Part shown: positions 1 to 7,909 of the stretch, piece after piece
Layout of the letters: every line of letters begins with the position of its first letter
Numbering within the stretch: the stretch's first letter is position 1
IMG/VR virus record: IMGVR_UViG_2778261498_000001
Location: 1 to 7,909 of that record
Strand: one strand, 5' to 3'
Source: a virus
Taxonomy: Duplodnaviria; Heunggongvirae; Uroviricota; Caudoviricetes
DNA length: 7,909 nt
Position numbers and translations under genes: made by a program
The notes under the pieces: generated by a model
What the model was told of the DNA's origin: nothing
Database searches by the model: none
The model's input: only the letters and a program-made list of their open reading frames with translations

Positions 1-2337
1 GGCGCGCCGTTCCGCTACAGCTTCAGCGCCCTGAAGGACCGCCATAATGCCGTTGAGGTGAACTGGATTGACCCGGACAACGGCTGGGAGACGGCGACAG
101 AGCTTGTGGAGGACACGCAGGCCATTGCCCGTTACGGTCGTAACGTCACGAAGATGGATGCCTTTGGCTGTACCAGTCGGGGGCAGGCACACCGCGCCGG
201 GCTGTGGCTGATTAAAACAGAACTGCTGGAAACGCAGACCGTGGATTTCAGCGTCGGCGCAGAAGGGCTTCGCCATGTACCGGGCGATGTTATTGAAATC
301 TGTGATGATGACTATGCCGGTATCAGCACCGGTGGTCGTGTGCTGGCGGTGAACAGCCAGACCCGGACGCTGACGCTCGACCGTGAAATCACGCTGCCAT
401 CCTCCGGTACCACGCTGATAAGCCTGGTTGACGGAAGTGGCAATCCGGTGAGTGTGGAGGTCCAGTCCGTCACCGACGGCGTGAAGGTGAAAGTGAGCCG
501 GGTTCCTGATGGCGTTGCCGAGTACAGCGTGTGGGGGCTGAAGCTGCCGACGCTGCGCCAGCGCCTGTTCCGCTGCGTGAGTATCCGTGAGAATGACGAC
601 GGCACGTATGCCATCACCGCTGTGCAGCATGTGCCGGAGAAAGAGGCCATCGTGGATAACGGGGCGCACTTTGACGGCGACCAGAGCGGCACGGTGAATG
701 GTGTCACGCCGCCAGCAGTGCAGCACCTGACCGCAGAAGTCACCGCAGACAGCGGGGAATACCAGGTGCTGGCGCGCTGGGATACGCCGAAGGTGGTGAA
801 GGGTGTGAGCTTTATGCTTCGCCTGACCGTGGCAGCGGATGACGGCAGTGAGCGGCTGGTCAGCACGGCCCGGACGACGGAAACCACATACCGATTCACG
901 CAACTGGCGCTGGGAAACTACAGGCTGACAGTCCGGGCGGTAAATGCGTGGGGGCAGCAGGGCGATCCGGCATCGGTATCGTTCCGGATTGCCGCACCTG
1001 CAGTGCCGTCGCGGATTGAGCTGACGCCGGGCTATTTTCAGATAACTGCCACGCCGCATCTTGCGGTTTATGATCCGACGGTACAGTTTGAGTTCTGGTT
1101 CTCGGAAACGCGGATTACCGATATCAGGCAGGTTGAAACCACAGCGCGCTATCTTGGCACGGCGCTGTACTGGATAGCTGCCAGTATCAATATCAGGCCG
1201 GGCCATGATTATTATTTTTACATCCGCAGTGTGAACACCGTTGGCAAATCGGCATTTGTGGAGGCTGTTGGCCAGCCGAGTGATGACGCATCCGGCTATC
1301 TGGATTTTTTCAAAGGAGAGATAGGGAAAACCCATCTGGCTCAGGAGTTGTGGACGCAGATTGATAACGGTCAGCTTGCGCCTGACCTGGCTGAAATCAG
1401 GACGTCCATTACGGGTGTCAGCAATGAAATCACGCAGACCGTCAATAAGAAACTGGAAGACCAGAGTGCAGCGATCCAGCAGATACAGAAGGTTCAGGTT
1501 GATACAAATAATAACCTGAACAGCATGTGGGCTGTGAAGCTGCAGCAGATGCAGGACGGACGCCTTTATATCGCGGGTATCGGTGCCGGTATTGAGAACA
1601 CCCCCGACGGTATGCAGAGTCAGGTGCTGCTGGCGGCAGACAGGATTGCGATGATTAATCCTGCGAATGGCAACACAAAGCCGATGTTTGTTGGTCAGGG
1701 CGATCAGATATTTATGAATGAAGTGTTCCTGAAATATCTGACGGCTCCCACCATTACCAGCGGCGGTAATCCTCCGGCATTTTCCCTGACACCGGACGGG
1801 CGGCTGACGGCAAAAAATGCCGATATCAGCGGTAACGTGAATGCGAACTCCGGGACGCTCAACAACGTCACGATTAACGAGAACTGCCGGGTTCTGGGAA
1901 AACTGTCCGCGAACCAGATTGAAGGTGATCTCGTTAAAACAGTGGGCAAAGCTTTCCCCCGTGACTCCCGTGCACCGGAACGGTGGCCATCAGGGACCAT
2001 TACCGTCAGGGTTTATGACGATCAGCCGTTTGACCGGCAAATTGTTATTCCGGCGGTGGCTTTCAGCGGTGCCAGACATGAACGGGAGAATAGCGATACT
2101 TATTCGTCATGCCGCCTGATAGTGAAGAAAAACGGGGCTGAAATTTATAACCGAACGGCTCTGGATAATACTCTGATTTACACGGGTGTTATTGATATGC
2201 CTGCAGGCAGTGGCGTAATGACACTGGAGTTTTCGGTATCAGCATGGTGGGTAAATGGCTGGTATCCCACAGCAAGTATCAGCGATTTGCTGGTTGTGGT
2301 GATGAAGAAAGCCACCGCAGGCATCAGTATCAGCTGA
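1..2337 (+). CDS. J: Host specificity (central tail fibre / tip) protein J, C-terminal ~779 codons; 5' end lies upstream of the window
   Basis: Frame 1 is open from base 1 to the TGA at 2335-2337, so the ATG at 58 is internal. The translation is long and non-repetitive and matches what I recall of lambda J, including its C-terminal receptor-recognition segment (…[13 protein letters not shown]). Immunoglobulin/fibronectin-like segments also appear, e.g. …[24 protein letters not shown]…. Confidence 0.9.
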
Positions 2338-2404: not shown

Positions 2405-3004
2405 ATGCGTAAATTATGTGCTGTTATTCTGTCCGCAGTAGTCTGGCTGGTTGCCGCTGGTACGCCAGCGAGCGCAGCAGAGCATCAGTCCACACTAAGC
2501 GCCGGGTATCTTCAGGCCCATACTGATATGCCAGGCAGTGATGACCTGAAGGGCATTAACGTGAAATACCGTTATGAATTTACGGACACGCTGGGGCTGG
2601 TGACGTCATTCAGTTATGCCAATGCCAAAGATGAGCAAAAAACGCATTACAGCGATACCCGCTGGCATGAAGATTCAGTGCGTAACCGCTGGTTCAGCAT
2701 GATGGCGGGGCCATCTGTACGCGTGAATGAATGGTTCAGTGCTTATGCGATGGCAGGTGTGGCTTACAGCCGTGTTTCGACGTTCTCCGGGGATTATCTC
2801 CGCGTAACTGACAACAAGGGGAAAACGCACGATGTGCTGACCGGAAGTGATGACGATCGCCACAGCAACACGTCTCTGGCGTGGGGAGCTGGCGTGCAGT
2901 TTAACCCGACCGAATCCGTGGCCATTGATATTGCTTATGAAGGCTCCGGCAGTGGCGACTGGCGCACTGACGGTTTCATCGTGGGTGTCGGTTATAAGTT
3001 CTGA
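2405..3004 (+). CDS. lom: Ail/Lom/PagC-family outer membrane beta-barrel protein (lambda Lom homologue)
   Basis: 199-aa ORF with an N-terminal signal peptide (MRKLCAVILSAVVWLVAAGTPASA/AE). Alternating hydrophobic beta-strand pattern and a C-terminal …GSGSGDWRTDGFIVGVGYKF ending in aromatic-X-Phe, as in lambda Lom. GAGAGG Shine-Dalgarno about 7 nt upstream of the ATG. Position between J and stf matches lambda. Confidence 0.9.
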   Translation: MRKLCAVILSAVVWLVAAGTPASAAEHQSTLSAGYLQAHTDMPGSDDLKGINVKYRYEFTDTLGLVTSFSYANAKDEQKTHYSDTRWHEDSVRNRWFSMMAGPSVRVNEWFSAYAMAGVAYSRVSTFSGDYLRVTDNKGKTHDVLTGSDDDRHSNTSLAWGAGVQFNPTESVAIDIAYEGSGSGDWRTDGFIVGVGYKF

Positions 3005-3060: not shown

Positions 3061-3068
3061 GAGTGGAT

Positions 3069-5426
3069 ATGGCAGCAGTAAAAATCTCAGGTGTGCTGAA
3101 AGATGGTGCGGGAAAACCAATACAGAACTGCACTATTCAACTGAAGGCAAAGCGTAACAGCACCACGGTACTGGTGAACACGGTGGCCTCTGAAAATCCT
3201 GATGAAGCCGGGCGTTACAGTATGGACGTTGAGTATGGCCAGTACAGCGTCATCCTGCTGGTTGAAGGTTTTCCGCCTTCACATGCCGGGACCATTACCG
3301 TCTATGAAGGTTCCAGTCCGGGGACGCTGAATGATTTTCTCGGTGCCATGACGGAAGATGATGTCATGCCGGAGGCATTGCGTCGTTTTGAGGAAATGGT
3401 GGAAGAAGCGGCACGCAACGCCGAAGCCGCCTCTCAGAGCGCAGCGGCGGCAAAGAAATCCGAAACTGCAGCGGCATCATCGAAGAACGCGGCGAAAACC
3501 TCAGAAACGAATGCAGCTAACAGCGCACAGGCGGCAGCGACCTCACAGACTGCATCGGCAAACTCCGCGACAGCAGCCAAAAAATCAGAAACCAACGCGA
3601 AAAACAGCGAGACAGCCGCAAAGACGAGCGAAACCAACGCAAAGTCCAGCCAGACGGCAGCGAAGACCAGCGAAACGAATGCCAAAGCCAGTGAAACTGC
3701 GGCAAAAAACAGCCAGGTTGCAGCAGCCGAAAGCGAGAGCGCGGCAGCCGGTTCTGCGACTTCAGCAGCTGGATCAGCAACTGCTGCGGCTAACAGCCAG
3801 AAAGCTGCGAAGACGAGTGAAACTAACGCAAAGTCCAGCCAGACGGCAGCGAAGACCAGCGAAACGAATGCCAAAGCCAGCGAAACTGCGGCAAAAAACA
3901 GTCAGGATGCAGCGGCCCAAAGCGAGAGTGCCGCAGCTGGTTCTGCAAGTGCGGCAGCTAATAGCCAAAAAGCTGCAAAAACCAGTGAAACTAACGCAAA
4001 GACGAGTGAAACAAAAGCAGCAGCCAGCAAGACAGAAGCAACGTCAGCCGCAACAAGAGCAGAGAATGCAGCCCGGATTGCAGAAGATGCCGCTGATCCT
4101 GCTTCTGTCCCTCCGCTTCCTGATATCTGGCTACCCTTGAATGATTCTCTGGAAGCGATAACAGGGTATGCCCCGGGCTATAAAACAATAACCATCGGCA
4201 GTGATGAAATCACTGTACCTGTTAATGGCATATGCCAATTTAGCCGCGCTTCATCAGCAACTTATATTGATAAGTCCGGGCATATTACCGTAGCAGGTAA
4301 TAACGTTCCTCGTTTTGAAAAATATGGTTTGCTGATAGAGAATCAGCGAACAAACATGTTCGTAAATAGTTTTAATCCTGATGCGTGGAATAAAAGCGGT
4401 GGTATATCTGTAACATCATCAACAGATGAATTTGAGTTTAAATATGGACGTTTCACAGTAGGAAGTGAGATAGCAGGAACGACAACAGGGAGAAATATAT
4501 GCACAGTTGCTGGTAATAAAGGCATAGATGTGACTGGCGATGATCAATACAGTAAAGGTCCGTATGTTACCGCGTCGTTCAGGGTAAGAAGTGATCTCAA
4601 TGTTCGCGCACGTATCCGTTTTGAAGGGTATAACTCGGAAGGATACACTTTCCTTTGTGACGCCTATTTGTCATTACAGACTCATGAACTACAAATTACG
4701 GGTGGTAATGCCCAGCTATTAACAGCAAACTTTGAAATCGACCCTGGTAGTGGATGGATATATTTTCAGGCAACACTGAAATGTCTGCCAGAATGGGGAA
4801 TGGTTGGTACGCAGCTGCAAATTGCAGCCGACAGAGCAGTGGGGGCTTTTGCAACAGGTGACTGGATAGAAGTAACCACCCCGCAATTCGAGTATGGTGC
4901 CTGTGCAACTTCCTTTATCATAACGACAACAGAGCCAGCGACTCGTGCATCAGATTTATGTAAATTTCCGCTGATGAAAAATATGTATACCATGCCTTTT
5001 ACGTTCATGGTGGAAGTCCATAAAAACTGGTTTATTTCTCATAATGCTGCACCGCGAGTAATTGATACAGAAAACCATCAGTCAGGTGCTCCATTTATCA
5101 TGGGATTTGGCTCTTCTGGAACTATCAGTCAGGACGGTTATCCCTATTGTGATATAGGCGGGGCTAACCGACGTGTATATGAGTCATGCGGAGTAAGAGA
5201 TCTCGTTATGGGATTCAGGGTTAAGGCTGACGGCATGACATGCTCATTTGCAAATAAGCATATAAGCACAGAAACAAAAACAGTATGGAAATATATTCGT
5301 GAAGCTGCTGTGATTCGTATCGGGGGACAAACGACGACAGGATTACGACACCTTAATGGTCATATAAAAAACCTCCGTTTCTGGAACAGAGCATTGTCAG
5401 ATACGCAGCTTAAGGAATACGTATAA
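3069..5426 (+). CDS. stf: Mosaic side tail fibre protein: lambda Stf-like N-terminal domain, Ala/Ser/Thr-rich repeat shaft, and an unrelated lower-G+C C-terminal domain (possibly concanavalin-A/LamG-like)
   Basis: N-terminus MAAVKISGVLKDGAGKPIQNCTIQLKAKRNSTTVLVNTVASENPDEAGRYSMDVEYGQYSVILLVEGFPPSHAGTITVYEGS… matches my recollection of lambda Stf. GGAG lies 6 nt upstream of the ATG at 3069; the ORF track's GTG at 3063 is in frame but less likely. The C-terminal ~445 residues differ in composition and end in …LRHLNGHIKNLRFWNRALSDTQLKEYV, which resembles the terminal strand of LamG/ConA-like jelly-roll domains. The His-rich HxH motifs of the lambda Stf C-terminus are absent. Confidence 0.85.
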   Translation: MAAVKISGVLKDGAGKPIQNCTIQLKAKRNSTTVLVNTVASENPDEAGRYSMDVEYGQYSVILLVEGFPPSHAGTITVYEGSSPGTLNDFLGAMTEDDVMPEALRRFEEMVEEAARNAEAASQSAAAAKKSETAAASSKNAAKTSETNAANSAQAAATSQTASANSATAAKKSETNAKNSETAAKTSETNAKSSQTAAKTSETNAKASETAAKNSQVAAAESESAAAGSATSAAGSATAAANSQKAAKTSETNAKSSQTAAKTSETNAKASETAAKNSQDAAAQSESAAAGSASAAANSQKAAKTSETNAKTSETKAAASKTEATSAATRAENAARIAEDAADPASVPPLPDIWLPLNDSLEAITGYAPGYKTITIGSDEITVPVNGICQFSRASSATYIDKSGHITVAGNNVPRFEKYGLLIENQRTNMFVNSFNPDAWNKSGGISVTSSTDEFEFKYGRFTVGSEIAGTTTGRNICTVAGNKGIDVTGDDQYSKGPYVTASFRVRSDLNVRARIRFEGYNSEGYTFLCDAYLSLQTHELQITGGNAQLLTANFEIDPGSGWIYFQATLKCLPEWGMVGTQLQIAADRAVGAFATGDWIEVTTPQFEYGACATSFIITTTEPATRASDLCKFPLMKNMYTMPFTFMVEVHKNWFISHNAAPRVIDTENHQSGAPFIMGFGSSGTISQDGYPYCDIGGANRRVYESCGVRDLVMGFRVKADGMTCSFANKHISTETKTVWKYIREAAVIRIGGQTTTGLRHLNGHIKNLRFWNRALSDTQLKEYV
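3572..4010. repeat. Nested in-frame tandem repeats inside stf: 42-bp (14-aa) units inside a 189-bp (63-aa) higher-order repeat
   Basis: Peptide units AAK(T/K)SETNAK(S/A/N/T)S(Q/E)T recur many times. At DNA level, 3621-3651 (aagacgagcgaaaccaacgcaaagtccagcc) recurs at 3810-3840 (aagacgagtgaaactaacgcaaagtccagcc), an offset of exactly 189 bp, with near-identity continuing for over 120 bp. Confidence 0.8.
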
Positions 5427-5695
5427 TGCGGGATATAACATTACGATTCGATAACAGAGAACAGTTTAACGCAATTGTATATGACAGTGGCCTGTTCAGT
5501 CTTGAAGAAGAAAATGGGGTTCTTGTTGATGTTATTGGCTGCATTATTGATTACGAGGAGCCAGAAAACGAAAGATGTACAGGCATTGATCGCGGTGGTT
5601 TTTTCGTAAACATGAGGATTGTTGATGGCAGTAAAAACATATCTTCTTTAATGCCTTTCATTACGACAGATCAGCATGTAAGGACATGGGCTTAA
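5426..5695 (+). CDS. Hypothetical 89-aa acidic protein, translationally coupled to stf; function unknown (possibly fibre-associated chaperone or adaptor)
   Basis: The ATG overlaps the stf stop codon by one base (TAATG at 5424-5428). AAGGAA Shine-Dalgarno at 5412-5417, 8 nt upstream. Non-repetitive sequence with the same low G+C as its neighbours. The next gene starts 12 bp after its stop. I recognise no family. Confidence 0.55.
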   Translation: MRDITLRFDNREQFNAIVYDSGLFSLEEENGVLVDVIGCIIDYEEPENERCTGIDRGGFFVNMRIVDGSKNISSLMPFITTDQHVRTWA

Positions 5696-5707: not shown

Positions 5708-6748
5708 ATGGTTACAAAAACAGTAATTCCTGATGACATCAAAACGCTAAAATCCGATGTTAGTAAACTACAAAACGATCAAGGAAGCTACGCAACAAAA
5801 TCATATGTAGACAGCAAAGATGAAACCGTTGGTGACTGGTCTGCTTCATGGTATCAGCAGGTATTGCCAACTAGCGGAGCTATATTTGGGCGAAAACTTC
5901 GCTCAACTCACAGGACGGCAGGTGTTGAGGATGCGTATTGCGAACTATACCTTAAAAAATGGATAGACAGTCCAGGGAACGCAATGGCGCGCCTTAACCT
6001 GAACGATAACGGTGAAAATATTTGCTGGGATTTTACCAACCTTTACGGCGGAACAATGATCTTCCCTGGTACTTCAGGTTATCTGAAAATGGGGAACTGT
6101 CTCATGTCGTATGGTGTGCGGGGAAGTAACGCGCTTATTAAGTTTGATAATACAGACACATTACAAATCAAATACGCTAATCATGGGTCAACCATGACAT
6201 TAAACACGCAAGGTACGGCGTATTCTGGTGTGTCGACGTTATTATGGGGAAATTCCAGTCGTCCAGTTGTTTATGAAATTAGGGATGATGGCGGGCTTTT
6301 TTTGTTTTATGCACAAAGGAACCCAGATAAAACCTATCAGCTTGAGATAAACGGGCCATGCAAGGCAACATCATTCGACCAGGTGTCGGACAGAGATCTT
6401 AAAGAAAACATTCAGGTTATTGATAATGCCACTGAGCGCATCAGATTAATGAATGGGTATACTTACCGTCTCAAGTCTAATGGTATGCCTTATGCTGGCG
6501 TTATTGCGCAAGAGGCACTTAATGCAATCCCTGAATCAGTTGGTAGCACAATAAAGTACAAGAGCGGGGACAATGGGTCTGATGGAGAAGAGGGAGAAAG
6601 ATACTATACCGTCGATTACTCAGGCGTAACGGGTTTGCTTGTTCAGGTAGCCAGAGAGTCAGACGACAGGATAACAGCACTGGAAGAAGAAAACGCAGAA
6701 TTAAGACAAAGATTATCTGCAATTGAGGCGGCGCTTGCGTCTAAATAA
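5708..6748 (+). CDS. Tail fibre / tail spike-like protein with a C-terminal intramolecular chaperone, autoproteolytic (peptidase S74-type) domain
   Basis: GGAG at 5697-5700, 7 nt upstream of the ATG. The C-terminal ~120 aa carry what I recognise as S74 hallmarks: …QV-SDRDLKENI… (Ser codon at 6386-6388; Ser/Lys dyad at the predicted self-cleavage site), …YAGVIAQEALNAIPE…, …YTVDYSGVTGLLVQVARE…, and a terminal heptad-like helix ITALEEENAELRQRLSAIEAALA. The N-terminal ~226 aa look like a short helical stretch followed by a beta-rich globular domain. Confidence 0.8.
   Translation: MVTKTVIPDDIKTLKSDVSKLQNDQGSYATKSYVDSKDETVGDWSASWYQQVLPTSGAIFGRKLRSTHRTAGVEDAYCELYLKKWIDSPGNAMARLNLNDNGENICWDFTNLYGGTMIFPGTSGYLKMGNCLMSYGVRGSNALIKFDNTDTLQIKYANHGSTMTLNTQGTAYSGVSTLLWGNSSRPVVYEIRDDGGLFLFYAQRNPDKTYQLEINGPCKATSFDQVSDRDLKENIQVIDNATERIRLMNGYTYRLKSNGMPYAGVIAQEALNAIPESVGSTIKYKSGDNGSDGEEGERYYTVDYSGVTGLLVQVARESDDRITALEEENAELRQRLSAIEAALASK
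6386..6745 (+). other. Predicted S74-type intramolecular chaperone domain, expected to be released by self-cleavage N-terminal to the Ser encoded at 6386-6388
   Basis: Motif SDRDLKENI plus the downstream conserved blocks described for the fibre-like CDS. Domain boundary is from motif position only. Confidence 0.65.
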
Positions 6749-7078: not shown

Positions 7079-7095
7079 ATATAAAAAGTAAAAAG

Positions 7096-7127
7096 CCGCA
7101 GTAACTTGTCATGACAGGATACTGCGG
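7096..7127. other. 32-bp near-perfect palindrome 18 bp after the membrane-protein stop; terminator hairpin or protein-binding site
   Basis: CCGCAGTAACTTGTCA | TGACAGGATACTGCGG pairs at 15 of 16 positions (one A/A mismatch, one G-T wobble). Followed by TTGGCTGGTT, so no clean U-tract. Confidence 0.4.
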
Positions 7128-7341
7128 TTGGCTGGTTAACTTTCGATAGTGCGAGTATTGAATAATTTCCAGCCGTTACCGATTTTATATAACTGCAGTG
7201 GAATTATTCAACACACAGGCAAAACGGAATAAGCTGAGAAAAAAGCGTGCTTTCCCAATCTGGGGCAAATCACGTCTGAATGACACCTGAAAACAGGTGG
7301 TGGACTCAAGAAGGCTTGGAATATTCTTCTTTAATGTTATG

Positions 7342-7354
7342 TAATTCATTGATT
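7342..7354 (-). promoter_or_regulatory. IHF-consensus match in the presumptive attR P-arm
   Basis: TAATTCATTGATT fits YAANNNNTTGATW exactly (complement of WATCAANNNNTTR). It overlaps the first copy of the direct repeat TTGATTTTTCG (7349-7359). Confidence 0.4.
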
Positions 7355-7396
7355 TTTCGTGTACGATTTTAAGACATTTATTCCAAGAAAAATTTT

Positions 7397-7409
7397 TAAC
7401 TCTTTGATT
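7397..7409 (-). promoter_or_regulatory. Second IHF-consensus match in the presumptive attR P-arm
   Basis: TAACTCTTTGATT fits YAANNNNTTGATW exactly. It overlaps the second copy of TTGATTTTTCG (7404-7414), 55 bp from the first and about 20 bp from the tRNA-derived core. Confidence 0.4.
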
Positions 7410-7426
7410 TTTCGACTCTGTATCAT

Positions 7427-7488
7427 CGGTCTCGAAAACCGGAGTAGGGGCAACTCTACCGGGGGTTCAAATCCCCCTCTCTCCGCCA
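7427..7488 (+). tRNA. Partial tRNA-Ser(CGA) gene, 3' portion only (anticodon arm through CCA); presumptive att core / prophage-host junction
   Basis: CGGT-CTCGAAA-ACCGG (anticodon loop with CGA), long variable arm AGTAGGGGCAACTCTACC (class II tRNA), T-arm GGGGG-TTCAAAT-CCCCC, then acceptor 3' strand TCTCTCC-G-CCA. No complementary 5' acceptor strand (GGAGAGA) or D-arm exists upstream, so it is a fragment. It matches my recollection of the E. coli serU 3' half. Confidence 0.75.
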
Positions 7489-7770
7489 CTTTATCAATGA
7501 CTTATCTCCCGACTTCCCGCCTTGCTTTTCCTAAACAGAACAATCGTAGAATATTCTTGAAGGGTTAGATCGTCACTGTTTTCTGTTCGATACTGTGACA
7601 TTCAGCACTTGATTCGCTATGGATCTGACAGGAAGGTTTCGAGCGAAAATCTGCAATTATTCAGTCGTTTTCTTATCGGTCACCATTATTCTTTTAGACA
7701 TTGATCCTACAAAGCTGCCGCAAAGTTGGTGGTGGGAACTGAAGTTGCGTAGAGAAGGGGTCAATAATTG

Positions 7771-7809
7771 AGCAAAAAAAGGAACGCGGCCGTCAGATTA
7801 AAGCCGCGG
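7771..7809 (-). terminator. Possible intrinsic terminator on the minus strand in the flank
   Basis: On the minus strand: CGCGGC, a 12-nt loop, GCCGCG, then TTCCTTTTTTTGCTC. The stem is GC-rich with a strong T-run; the loop is long. Confidence 0.4.
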
Positions 7810-7909
7810 GACAAAGTCCATAATTTCCAAGAGTTGTTGAATTTCCCAGCTTTTTTGAAAGCCTTTGTATCATACTAACAAGTAAAAAAGGTTTAAATAC
7901 CAAAATTAA

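Follow-up and report, generated by a model that had tools for sequence, protein, structure and literature searches.

The side tail fibre encoded in the window, by which we mean the whole 7,909-nucleotide stretch of DNA analysed here, carries a helical shaft whose coding DNA is a tandem array, and copies of a 63-aa unit of this array number one, two or three in homologous prophages and phages. The best explanation overall, and one that we hold to be very probably correct, is that this Stf shaft contains an old 189-bp duplication, and that occasional misaligned homologous recombination changes its length in frame. The route to fibre length variation proposed in a first-pass annotation of this DNA thus holds up, as the number of units in homologous prophages is not identical throughout. 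The repeat shaft is at the same time an ordinary, mostly stable feature of a known protein family.

The fibre gene and its neighbourhood

The protein is shown here to be a lambda-type side tail fibre (Stf) of an E. coli lambdoid prophage. Its gene stands in a tail module with the lambdoid order J-lom-stf (58-2337, 2405-3004 and 3069-5426), and the features of this module and of the fibre are as follows.

58..2337, + strand: gpJ tail-tip / central fibre gene, 3' part (Pfam Ig_J, Ig_J_second, Phage_Tail_Tip and Ig_GpJ_C)
2405..3004, + strand: lom, Ail/Lom outer-membrane protein (PF06316, E = 2e-127)
3069..5426, + strand: stf-like side tail fibre gene, lambda-type, intact, 785 aa (ORF list; phrog_1419 end to end)
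3075..3353, + strand: N-terminal collar domain, aa 3-95, by which the fibre is fixed to the tail (E = 2e-49 to PDB 9e7m/9mgh, lambda 'Tail fiber protein')
4098..5423, + strand: distal fibre part, putatively receptor-binding (lower G+C; GTA_spike_fiber-type beta-sandwich at aa 422-627)
5426..5695, + strand: 89-aa ORF that accompanies the fibre C-terminus (phrog_1361)
5708..6748, + strand: second fibre protein with a C-terminal Peptidase_S74 intramolecular chaperone (PF13884, E = 2.4e-12; phrog_4563)

The first of these genes is annotated as gpJ in an identical genome (G749). The stf ORF can also be read from a GTG at 3063, and a protein of 785 aa that is 98% identical to the window fibre (P0001) has the N-terminus MAAVKISG. 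The PF08400 match covers aa 3-132 of the fibre (E = 1.5e-66); past aa 132 Pfam gives no match, and a gp37-like distal domain is absent. The GTA_spike_fiber match (NCBIfam NF048003, E = 4.8e-13) lies at aa 422-627, and the G+C content along stf is 0.56, then 0.38-0.47 beyond nt ~4100, which is the 3' end of the array. A tfa assembly chaperone gene was not found 3' of the fibre, where the phrog_1361 gene and the fibre with the S74 chaperone stand instead; a phrog_1361 gene follows the fibre in three related loci as well (L081, L082 and L156). With neither the gp37-like domain nor tfa, the window fibre would be an Stf-type proximal half joined to a different distal module. The AF2 model of the C-terminal part has a pLDDT of 47, with low confidence outside aa ~440-605; Foldseek matched this model weakly to phage tail fibres (9b45 and 8env) and to CBM4, which is no more than suggestive. 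ARAGORN reports zero tRNA genes in the window, and a manual six-frame reading of 7080-7909 for an invertase revealed none.

RefSeq annotates the intact stf gene of the identical source genome as two features, a 'pseudogene' and a separate CDS, and leaves the repeats unannotated; among the top 40 complete genomes, half have listed features that suggest the same split. The fibre is thereby under-called as broken, which is a practical lesson for annotation.

The heptad array and its higher-order repeat

The elements of the array are given below with the evidence for each.

3405..4097, + strand: heptad array of 33 uninterrupted heptads, predicted coiled-coil shaft (heptad print-out, position composition, AF2, lambda Stf homology)
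3615..3803, + strand: higher-order unit 1, 189 bp, nine heptads, 63 aa (TRF period 189; unit alignment)
3804..3971, + strand: higher-order unit 2, 168 bp, eight heptads, 21-bp gap (unit alignment, 89% identity to unit 1)
3972..4013, + strand: third unit, partial, beginning only, AAKTSET NAKTSET (TRF; heptad print-out)
3636..3691, + strand: 56-bp exact repeat, copy 1 (identical to 3825..3880, offset 189)
3825..3880, + strand: 56-bp exact repeat, copy 2 (identical to 3636..3691)

In TRF the 189-bp period appears twice, at 3603-3946 (1.8 copies with 90% matches, free of indels; score 590) and at 3617-4019 (2.1 copies, 82% matches, 3% indels). The program also reports 21-bp repeats and two local repeats of 42 bp, at 3588-3676 and at 3794-3881, each of 2.1 copies (80%). 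The repeat had earlier been placed at 3572-4010 with a unit of 189 bp, both of which TRF bears out, but the periodic region is larger and extends over 33 heptads (nt 3405-4097). Its smallest repeating element is one heptad, 21 bp long, of the form [A/N]-A-[K/A]-x-S-[E/Q/A]-T. The earlier reading of the 189-bp unit as nested from 42-bp subunits was mistaken, because 189 bp is 9 x 21 bp and so 4.5 x 42 bp, no whole number of such subunits; the 42-bp period is merely a local alternation of AAKTSET with NAKxSxT. Unit 2 is without one heptad of the AAAGSAT type. Self-identity of the array is 0.53 at an offset of 21, 0.50 at 42 and 0.63 at 189, and falls to 0.34 at in-frame offsets outside the multiples of 21. 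The 189-bp repeat is well above chance: the best 168-nt window has 146/168 positions matching, and 300 shuffles of heptad order, in which the 33 blocks were kept, averaged 104 and peaked at 123. The 56-bp repeat is the longest exact one in the window's array, and is as such the longest substrate there for unequal homologous exchange. All of the repeat periods (21, 42, 168 and 189 bp) lie inside the ORF and are multiples of 3, as had been pointed out before for 42 and 189 bp.

The heptad and coiled-coil analysis that the first-pass annotation had suggested places all 33 heptads in one register, corresponding to aa 113-343 of the 785-aa fibre, without a stutter or skip over 231 residues. Position 2 is Ala in 32/33 heptads, position 5 is Ser in 29/33 and position 1 is Asn in 7/33, so that conserved small residues (Ala, Ser) are spaced 3/4 apart and the candidates for the core are small or polar, not Leu, Ile or Val. 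Coiled coils seldom have a core of Ala and Ser; the same pattern is found in lambda Stf and in LtfA, both reported to be three-helix bundles. AF2, run on the monomer, gives one unbroken helix at aa 99-338 with a pLDDT above 90 over about 130 residues, and fibre aa 154-346 align with chain 37-227 of DT57C LtfA (PDB 8hqz) at E = 1e-5, a structure in which the helix from T40 forms a three-helix coiled coil projecting from a dodecameric collar. In the Ur-lambda structure paper gpStfN comprises residues 1-91 and is followed by a linker, 92-101, and residues 102-393 of lambda Stf are the proximal trimeric coiled coil (PMC12617516). That the array encodes the proximal alpha-helical shaft of the fibre is shown here by the modelled helicity together with the heptad register; the earlier assignment of the region to a fibre shaft is upheld by the collar match, the lambda homology and AF2, which identify it as the proximal coiled coil of a lambda-type Stf. 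By analogy with the lambda and DT57C structures, we infer that the shaft of the window fibre would be trimeric.

Codon differences between units 1 and 2 in the Stf frame are 15 synonymous and 3 non-synonymous, which we count as evidence for probable purifying selection on the units in this frame; given this ratio, alternative-frame ORFs over the array (3358-4140 on the + strand, 3434-3874 on the - strand and others) were rejected as genes. When units 1 and 2 are compared over 60 distinct DNA arrays, the 147 paralogous sites include 15 shared polymorphisms and 1 fixed difference, a pattern that points to gene conversion between units, although recurrent synonymous mutation could contribute.

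Length variants and their origin

The one-unit alleles (L082, L088, L089 and P0081) include those of the complete E. coli genomes MSB1_4I and CB209, and one in a protein that carries the window's own tail (P0081). The isolated phage IdasGreatGrand also has a one-unit allele, of 731 aa, and its single unit is a unit-1/unit-2 chimera, as is predicted by unequal crossing-over. Three proteins (P0066, P0067 and P0068), all from draft assemblies, are three-unit alleles of 854 aa, exactly 63 aa above the 791-aa alleles. In each of them a private substitution is doubled in the new copies (AMANSQK x2, ATANSQK x2 and NTKSSQT x2), from which at least two independent duplications follow. At the DNA level a three-unit locus (L081) has 3.2 copies, with a 257-bp exact run at offset 189. 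A three-unit DNA query against complete E. coli genomes gave a top 60 that were all two-unit (an 812-bp span in two pieces), with no three-unit allele among them; as the ranking is blind to unit class, three-unit alleles below 96.4% identity could hide. A synthetic five-unit protein query returned two-unit proteins only and missed the known three-unit ones, and so is uninformative on the maximum copy number. A species-spread scan of genome contigs found just Escherichia and Shigella, plus about 20 phage lambda-contaminated assemblies.

Smaller changes are seen in relatives as heptad indels, of -7 aa at several different sites, +7, -28 and -49 aa. To follow the register we compared the distance from an anchor to the first Pro within each C-terminal class. 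These distances are 151, 193, 207, 228, 249, 256 and 319 in the AEPY class, 182, 245 and 252 in the PASVPPL class, and 283 and 388 in the lambda class. All within-class length differences are multiples of 7, the sole exception being P0087, in which a change of -16 aa, not a multiple of seven, results from a deletion that spans the array end. Length steps of 14 or 63 residues had been anticipated; the latter is what separates the one-, two- and three-unit alleles, whereas none of 14 residues was seen among the length variants of relatives, the small steps being 7, 28 and 49 aa.

These variants are rare. About 95% of sampled alleles are two-unit, and two standard lengths account for 160/171 protein clusters and 77/79 measurable IMG/VR loci. 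Relatives at 98% identity have a fibre of the window's length in 40/40 top complete genomes and about 75 protein clusters, as do 27/28 IMG/VR loci that share the window's C-terminal domain. The description of the array as recombination-prone is consequently true on evolutionary time scales only, near-identical relatives having the same length. Short-read assembly collapse, which had been thought likely, is not seen for the window's allele: dozens of incomplete copies, lying on short contigs that are mostly 2-10 kb in size, span the array at full length, and the contigs end in the C-terminal domain. 'Partial' database proteins were considered as possible contig breaks in the repeat and rejected, as all begin at Met1, span the array and end at aa 550-690. 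Collapse would be a realistic worry only for recently expanded three-unit alleles, on account of their 257-bp exact repeat.

A plausible account of these observations is that the shaft lies between the N-terminal collar, the putative clamp on the tail tip, and an exchangeable distal part that would bind the receptor. As the shaft is built of 7-residue turns, its DNA repeats every 21 bp. An ancient duplication would have doubled a run of nine heptads (189 bp and 63 aa, or some 9 nm of helix), with purifying selection preserving both blocks. Being still 89% identical, with exact 56-bp runs, the blocks would occasionally misalign in homologous recombination, catalysed perhaps by RecA of the host or by a Red/RecT-type enzyme of a phage. 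Such misalignment would give rise to the one-unit and three-unit alleles, to gene conversion between units and to the smaller inter-heptad deletions, with the heptad register being kept in every variant that survives within the array. The conserved repeat DNA may also serve as a homology arm for exchange of distal, and sometimes proximal, fibre modules between phages. Shaft length may have an effect on adsorption.

Were the repeat instead a static structural one, an ancient frozen duplication, the one-unit and three-unit alleles would have to be assembly artefacts of collapse or over-expansion. The dominance of the two-unit form is in keeping with this, as are the 18 differing codons between the units, which mean that the duplication is old, and the occurrence of three-unit alleles in draft assemblies only, with none in the top 60 complete genomes. 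However, an isolated phage and two complete chromosomes that are independent of each other carry one-unit alleles, in differing backgrounds, and 56 bp of exact identity leaves a modern assembler no ambiguity by which a unit would be lost. Artefactual expansion would also need to carry private substitutions from at least two different parents, which is unlikely, the heptad indels at many positions keep the register, and a 15:1 excess of shared polymorphisms over fixed differences requires genuine exchange; we therefore regard a static repeat as highly improbable. Slightly more improbable again is programmed high-frequency variation, in which a contingency locus would rapidly tune or switch the fibre within populations. 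In-frame tandem repeats in a host-range protein, with several independent gains and losses, are what such a locus would have, but repeat lengths that are all multiples of 3 make on/off switching impossible, close relatives (98% identity, hundreds of genomes) share one length, a divergence of 11% between units misfits frequent homogenising turnover, and the window shows no enzyme or site dedicated to such variation.

A serious possibility, which we stop somewhat short of favouring, is that the conserved repeat DNA matters in evolution mainly as a joint for swapping host-range cassettes, copy-number change being a by-product; it is complementary to the occasional misaligned recombination that we favour. 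Identity to other phage stf genes ends at several positions inside the array (476, 582-588, 633 and 897 of the query), although these breakpoints are BLAST end points from a small sample, read off outside any formal recombination analysis. The G+C shift at the 3' end of the array is in line with such a role, and so is the attachment of the PASVPPL and AEPY distal modules to near-identical arrays, the eight-heptad unit 2 occurring with both tails. At the other end, one protein in a different tail module (P0072) has an unrelated N-terminal domain joined to the array within the repeats. Exchange of this kind is also known experimentally, lambda recombining with Rac and Qin across stf/tfa via Red-beta (PMC3945230). 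Against this, any conserved segment beside a variable one will resemble a joint. It is a good deal less likely, and we offer it only as a speculation, that shaft length is itself the selected trait, with the nine-heptad quantum (about 9 nm) and single-heptad steps matching the reach of the fibre to the depth of O-antigen or capsule relative to the central gpJ fibre, and that the predominance of two units reflects stabilising selection on a 'ruler' and not a low mutation rate.

With misaligned recombination between old units as the preferred explanation, the array offers a checked example of a phage fibre shaft that changes length yet keeps its fold, in whole heptads only and with a nine-heptad block as the preferred large step. 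It also marks the repeat array as a joint for host-range module exchange; since fusions at this joint are required to be in register, this should be useful for engineering chimeric lambda-type fibres. A limited search of the literature found no earlier description of the 63-aa unit polymorphism.

Comparison with known systems

The closest known system is gpStf of lambda (Ur-lambda), which like the window fibre has a homologous collar domain (PF08400; 9e7m, E = 2e-49), is encoded after J and lom, and has an [x-A-x-x-S-x-x] heptad array following a short linker. Between the lambda array and its counterpart in an E. coli homologue of 1120 aa (L124) there is a difference of exactly 15 heptads. The shaft of the window fibre is shorter, at about 231-240 helical residues compared with 292 in lambda gpStf, and has a 63-aa internal duplication of which the lambda array examined shows no sign. 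Distally the two fibres are unrelated: the window fibre has a GTA_spike_fiber-type beta-sandwich and lacks a gp37-like domain, and its stf gene is followed by the 89-aa ORF and the second fibre with the S74 chaperone in place of the tfa of lambda. The T5-family lateral fibre (DT57C LtfA, T5 pb1; 8hqz) likewise has a helical region rich in Ala, Ser, Lys and Glu. LtfA differs in its attachment, as its N-terminal strands insert into a separate collar protein, LtfC; it is without the PF08400 domain, and its distal parts differ from those of the window fibre.

Repeat number is known to vary in other fibres. In the adenovirus fibre the number of shaft repeats sets the length and varies between related viruses; the adenovirus shaft is a triple beta-spiral of 15-residue repeats, unrelated in sequence to the alpha-helical coiled coil of the window. 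The streptococcal M protein is a surface fibre formed by a heptad-based coiled coil, in which higher-order tandem DNA blocks are gained or lost whole and in frame, changing the length of the fibre. Hollingshead, Fischetti and Scott are said to have described in 1987 how its size variation arises via homologous recombination between intragenic repeats. M protein, a dimer on the bacterial surface, is subject to immune selection, and cultures and infections readily yield size variants of it, whereas length variants of the window-type fibre are rare.

The fibre gene and its heptad array

The sequence of the window recurs with 100% identity inside a lambdoid prophage of E. coli G749 and GN02100. 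The window carries these genes:

58-2337: 3' part of J
2405-3004: lom
3069-5426 (+): fibre gene, 785 aa, which holds the repeats
5426-5695: 89-aa ORF (phrog_1361), of unknown function
5708-6748: second fibre, 346 aa, with a Peptidase_S74 intramolecular chaperone

Because of N-terminal matches to PF08400 (first 132 residues, E = 1.5e-66) and to the solved lambda Stf collar domain (9e7m; residues 3-95, E = 2e-49), we identify the 785-aa gene, by homology, as a lambda-type side tail fibre. The ATG of the 89-aa ORF overlaps the stf stop codon, and the trio of stf, this ORF and the S74-chaperone fibre is found again in four related loci (L081, L082, L089 and L156).

Printed in sevens, the fibre protein contains 33 heptads in one unbroken register (aa 113-343, nt 3405-4097) with the consensus [A/N]-A-[K/A]-x-S-[E/Q/A]-T, position 2 being Ala in 32 and position 5 Ser in 29 of them. 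Tandem Repeats Finder calls a 189-bp period at 3603-3946 (90% matches, no indels) and again at 3617-4019, confirming the 189-bp repeat of the first-pass annotation, and also calls a 21-bp period and, at two local sites with 2.1 copies each, a 42-bp period. The 42-bp repeat, previously taken to be nested in the longer one, is not its subunit, 189 being 4.5 x 42; it arises where AAKTSET and NAKxSxT alternate locally, and the real block is the 21-bp heptad. The higher-order copies are as follows:

3615-3803: unit 1, nine heptads, 189 bp
3804-3971: unit 2, eight heptads
3972-4013: third copy, begun only

Identity of the array DNA to itself is 0.53, 0.50 and 0.63 at offsets of 21, 42 and 189 bp, and 0.34 at in-frame offsets outside the 21-bp series. 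The 189-bp match is 146/168, and since shuffling the 33 heptad blocks into new orders 300 times never gives more than 123/168, the higher-order repeat is more than a by-product of the heptads. The two units are 89% identical, with a 56-bp exact run in common (3636-3691 = 3825-3880), and their differing codons comprise 15 synonymous and 3 non-synonymous changes; the duplication is therefore old and the Stf frame is under selection. That selection rules out as genes the other-phase open frames over the array (3358-4140, +; 3434-3874, 3517-3780 and 3774-3968, all -), which owe their length to the absence of stop codons from the repeats in these phases. Inside the array the database protein P0092 slips into the +1 frame, which is Arg/Pro-rich; a sequencing frameshift is the probable cause.

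In Ur-lambda gpStf, residues 1-91 are the collar, 92-101 a linker and 102-393 a trimeric coiled coil in proximal position; a hinge and the distal part follow (PMC12617516). The same x-A-x-x-S-x-x heptads recur in lambda's own array, which was read from a contaminated assembly, and residues 154-346 of the window's fibre align (E = 1e-5) to DT57C LtfA, whose long helix, starting at T40, packs as a three-helix coiled coil in the solved structure (8hqz). AlphaFold2 on aa 90-366 predicts a single helix over aa 99-338 (mean pLDDT 80, above 90 over ~130 residues). We conclude that the repeats code for the proximal coiled-coil shaft, which, judging from these relatives, would be trimeric. At a helix rise of ~0.148 nm per residue the array measures ~34-35 nm, a 63-aa unit ~9.3 nm and a heptad ~1 nm.

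Length alleles among homologous fibres

Copy number varies among homologues, as had been anticipated, but it does so rarely. Two standard lengths account for 160 of 171 protein-cluster representatives and 77 of the 79 measurable IMG/VR loci picked by the N-domain; the window's length is seen in 27 of 28 IMG/VR loci with its C-terminal domain, and a length of exactly 2364 bp is shared by all 40 best complete E. coli genome matches. A one-unit query returned, as its best 60 complete-genome records, 56 two-unit alleles, 3 one-unit alleles (two strains) and 1 with a 28-aa deletion, and a three-unit query returned no three-unit allele among its best 60, all being two-unit.

Three-unit homologues (P0066, P0067 and P0068) are 854 aa long, exactly 63 aa more than the common 791-aa form, and each carries a private substitution twice, in units 1 and 2 (AMANSQK, ATANSQK and NTKSSQT respectively). 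ATANSQK or NTKSSQT is also found in unit 1 of some two-unit alleles, and there have therefore been at least two separate expansions; the one in P0066 is recent, its DNA (L081) showing 3.2 copies and, at offset 189, an exact run of 257 bp. One-unit alleles occur in the isolated phage IdasGreatGrand (731 aa), in the complete chromosomes of E. coli MSB1_4I and CB209, and in P0081 together with the window's own tail. The single unit of IdasGreatGrand is unit-1-type in its 5' part and unit-2-type in its 3' part, a chimera as predicted for unequal crossing-over.

The 63-residue step put forward in the first-pass annotation is thus seen in both directions; in place of its 14-residue step, the small steps found are 7, 28 and 49 aa, plus one of -16 aa. 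Losses of 7 aa lie at several different heptads (P0077, P0083, P0095, P0162 and L066), L093, a window-type allele, has gained 7 aa, and L069 has lost 49 aa. In E. coli EFF60 (L090, NZ_CP086678.1) a loss of 28 aa (four heptads) joins AAKNSQ to K, and because it is flanked by AAxNSQ heptads (AAKNSQ / AAANSQ), slippage between short direct repeats is likely. At this locus, whose annotation is fragmented, an IS200 lies upstream and an IS3-family element downstream of the fibre gene.

Anchor-to-first-proline distances (aa) by class of C-terminal junction following the array
AEPY: 151, 193, 207, 228, 249, 256, 319
PASVPPL: 182, 245, 252
Lambda: 283, 388

Within each class the distances differ by multiples of seven only, the single exception being P0087 (-16 aa; distance 240), whose deletion spans the end of the array. 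Steps of seven are a requirement of a continuous coiled coil. A phase-variable contingency locus was also considered and rejected, having failed both the test for frame or spacing shifts and that for length differences between close relatives.

Signs of exchange between units and between modules

Of the 147 paralogous sites that could be aligned in 60 distinct DNA arrays, only 1 is a fixed difference between units 1 and 2, and at 15 the identical two bases segregate in both. Such a pattern is classically left by gene conversion or unequal exchange; recurrent synonymous mutation could contribute. Pairs such as AAKNSQV-AAAQSES and AAKSSQD-AAAESES lie in either unit depending on the allele, so inter-unit exchange is visible at the protein level too. 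The mechanism first proposed, in-frame length change by slippage or unequal recombination, is largely right.

Megablast identity to other phage stf genes stops within the array (query positions 476, 582-588, 633 and 897), G+C drops from 0.56 to 0.38-0.47 directly 3' of it, and near-identical arrays carry two unrelated distal modules. The 718-aa fibre P0072 (L156 6001-8157) has an unrelated N-terminal domain (first ~150 residues without a Pfam match) joined within the heptads to a window-type unit 2, tail and C-terminal domain; its gene belongs to a siphophage tail module of another make-up (L, K, I and a 1386-aa J, with lom missing) and is followed by the same 89-aa ORF and S74-chaperone fibre. 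Lambda recombines with Rac and Qin across stf/tfa via Red-beta, which tolerates diverged sequence (PMC3945230). Taken together, these patterns suggest that the array is a joint for module exchange, on which a recombinase presumably acts.

The distal part (4098-5423) has no Pfam family; it includes a GTA_spike_fiber-type beta-sandwich (NCBIfam GTA_spike_fiber domain at aa 422-627), of which AlphaFold2 is confident only for the core (~aa 440-605). Weak Foldseek matches are to tail fibres of Pseudomonas myophages (9b45, 8env) and to CBM4.

Assembly, annotation and known systems

The assembly collapse that had been thought likely is not borne out, as copies on short contigs (mostly 2-10 kb) run right through the array and no collapse of the window's allele is seen among their 'partial' proteins. 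Dozens of these, at contig ends, all begin at residue 1, span the whole array and stop at aa 550-690 (window ~4720-5130); the breaks therefore lie outside the array, in the C-terminal domain, and may be due to sequence common to another prophage's fibre gene. Ordinary reads can resolve units whose exact identity extends over no more than 56 bp. Recently expanded alleles with the 257-bp exact repeat could collapse, and short-read data may therefore under-count them.

A scan of genome contigs also placed lambda stf, 86% identical to the query, in ~20 unrelated bacterial assemblies (L128-L145), including Pseudomonas, Shewanella, Kitasatospora, Oceanobacillus, Bradyrhizobium and Vibrio; the contigs are low-coverage, several are 48.4-48.5 kb long, and phage lambda control DNA is almost certainly the contaminant.

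The practical artefact found at this locus is one of annotation. In E. coli G749 (NZ_CP014488.1, L155 4507-6864) RefSeq/PGAP splits the intact 785-aa ORF into two features and leaves the repeat array between them without annotation:

3069-3435: N-terminal 'pseudogene, missing C-terminus'
4137-5426: 'phage head spike fiber domain-containing protein', a separate CDS

Both names also stand under the gene in 20 of the 40 best complete-genome matches, which suggests that the split is repeated there.

All testable Stf features are found in the proximal half of the fibre, and the domain and gene annotation of the window reveals neither a gp37-like domain in the distal half nor a downstream tfa gene. 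The fibre thus resembles lambda Stf in collar, gene position and heptad shaft, but differs from it in the distal half and tfa. The streptococcal M protein varies in size by recombination between intragenic repeats, to which the variation of this array is mechanistically similar.
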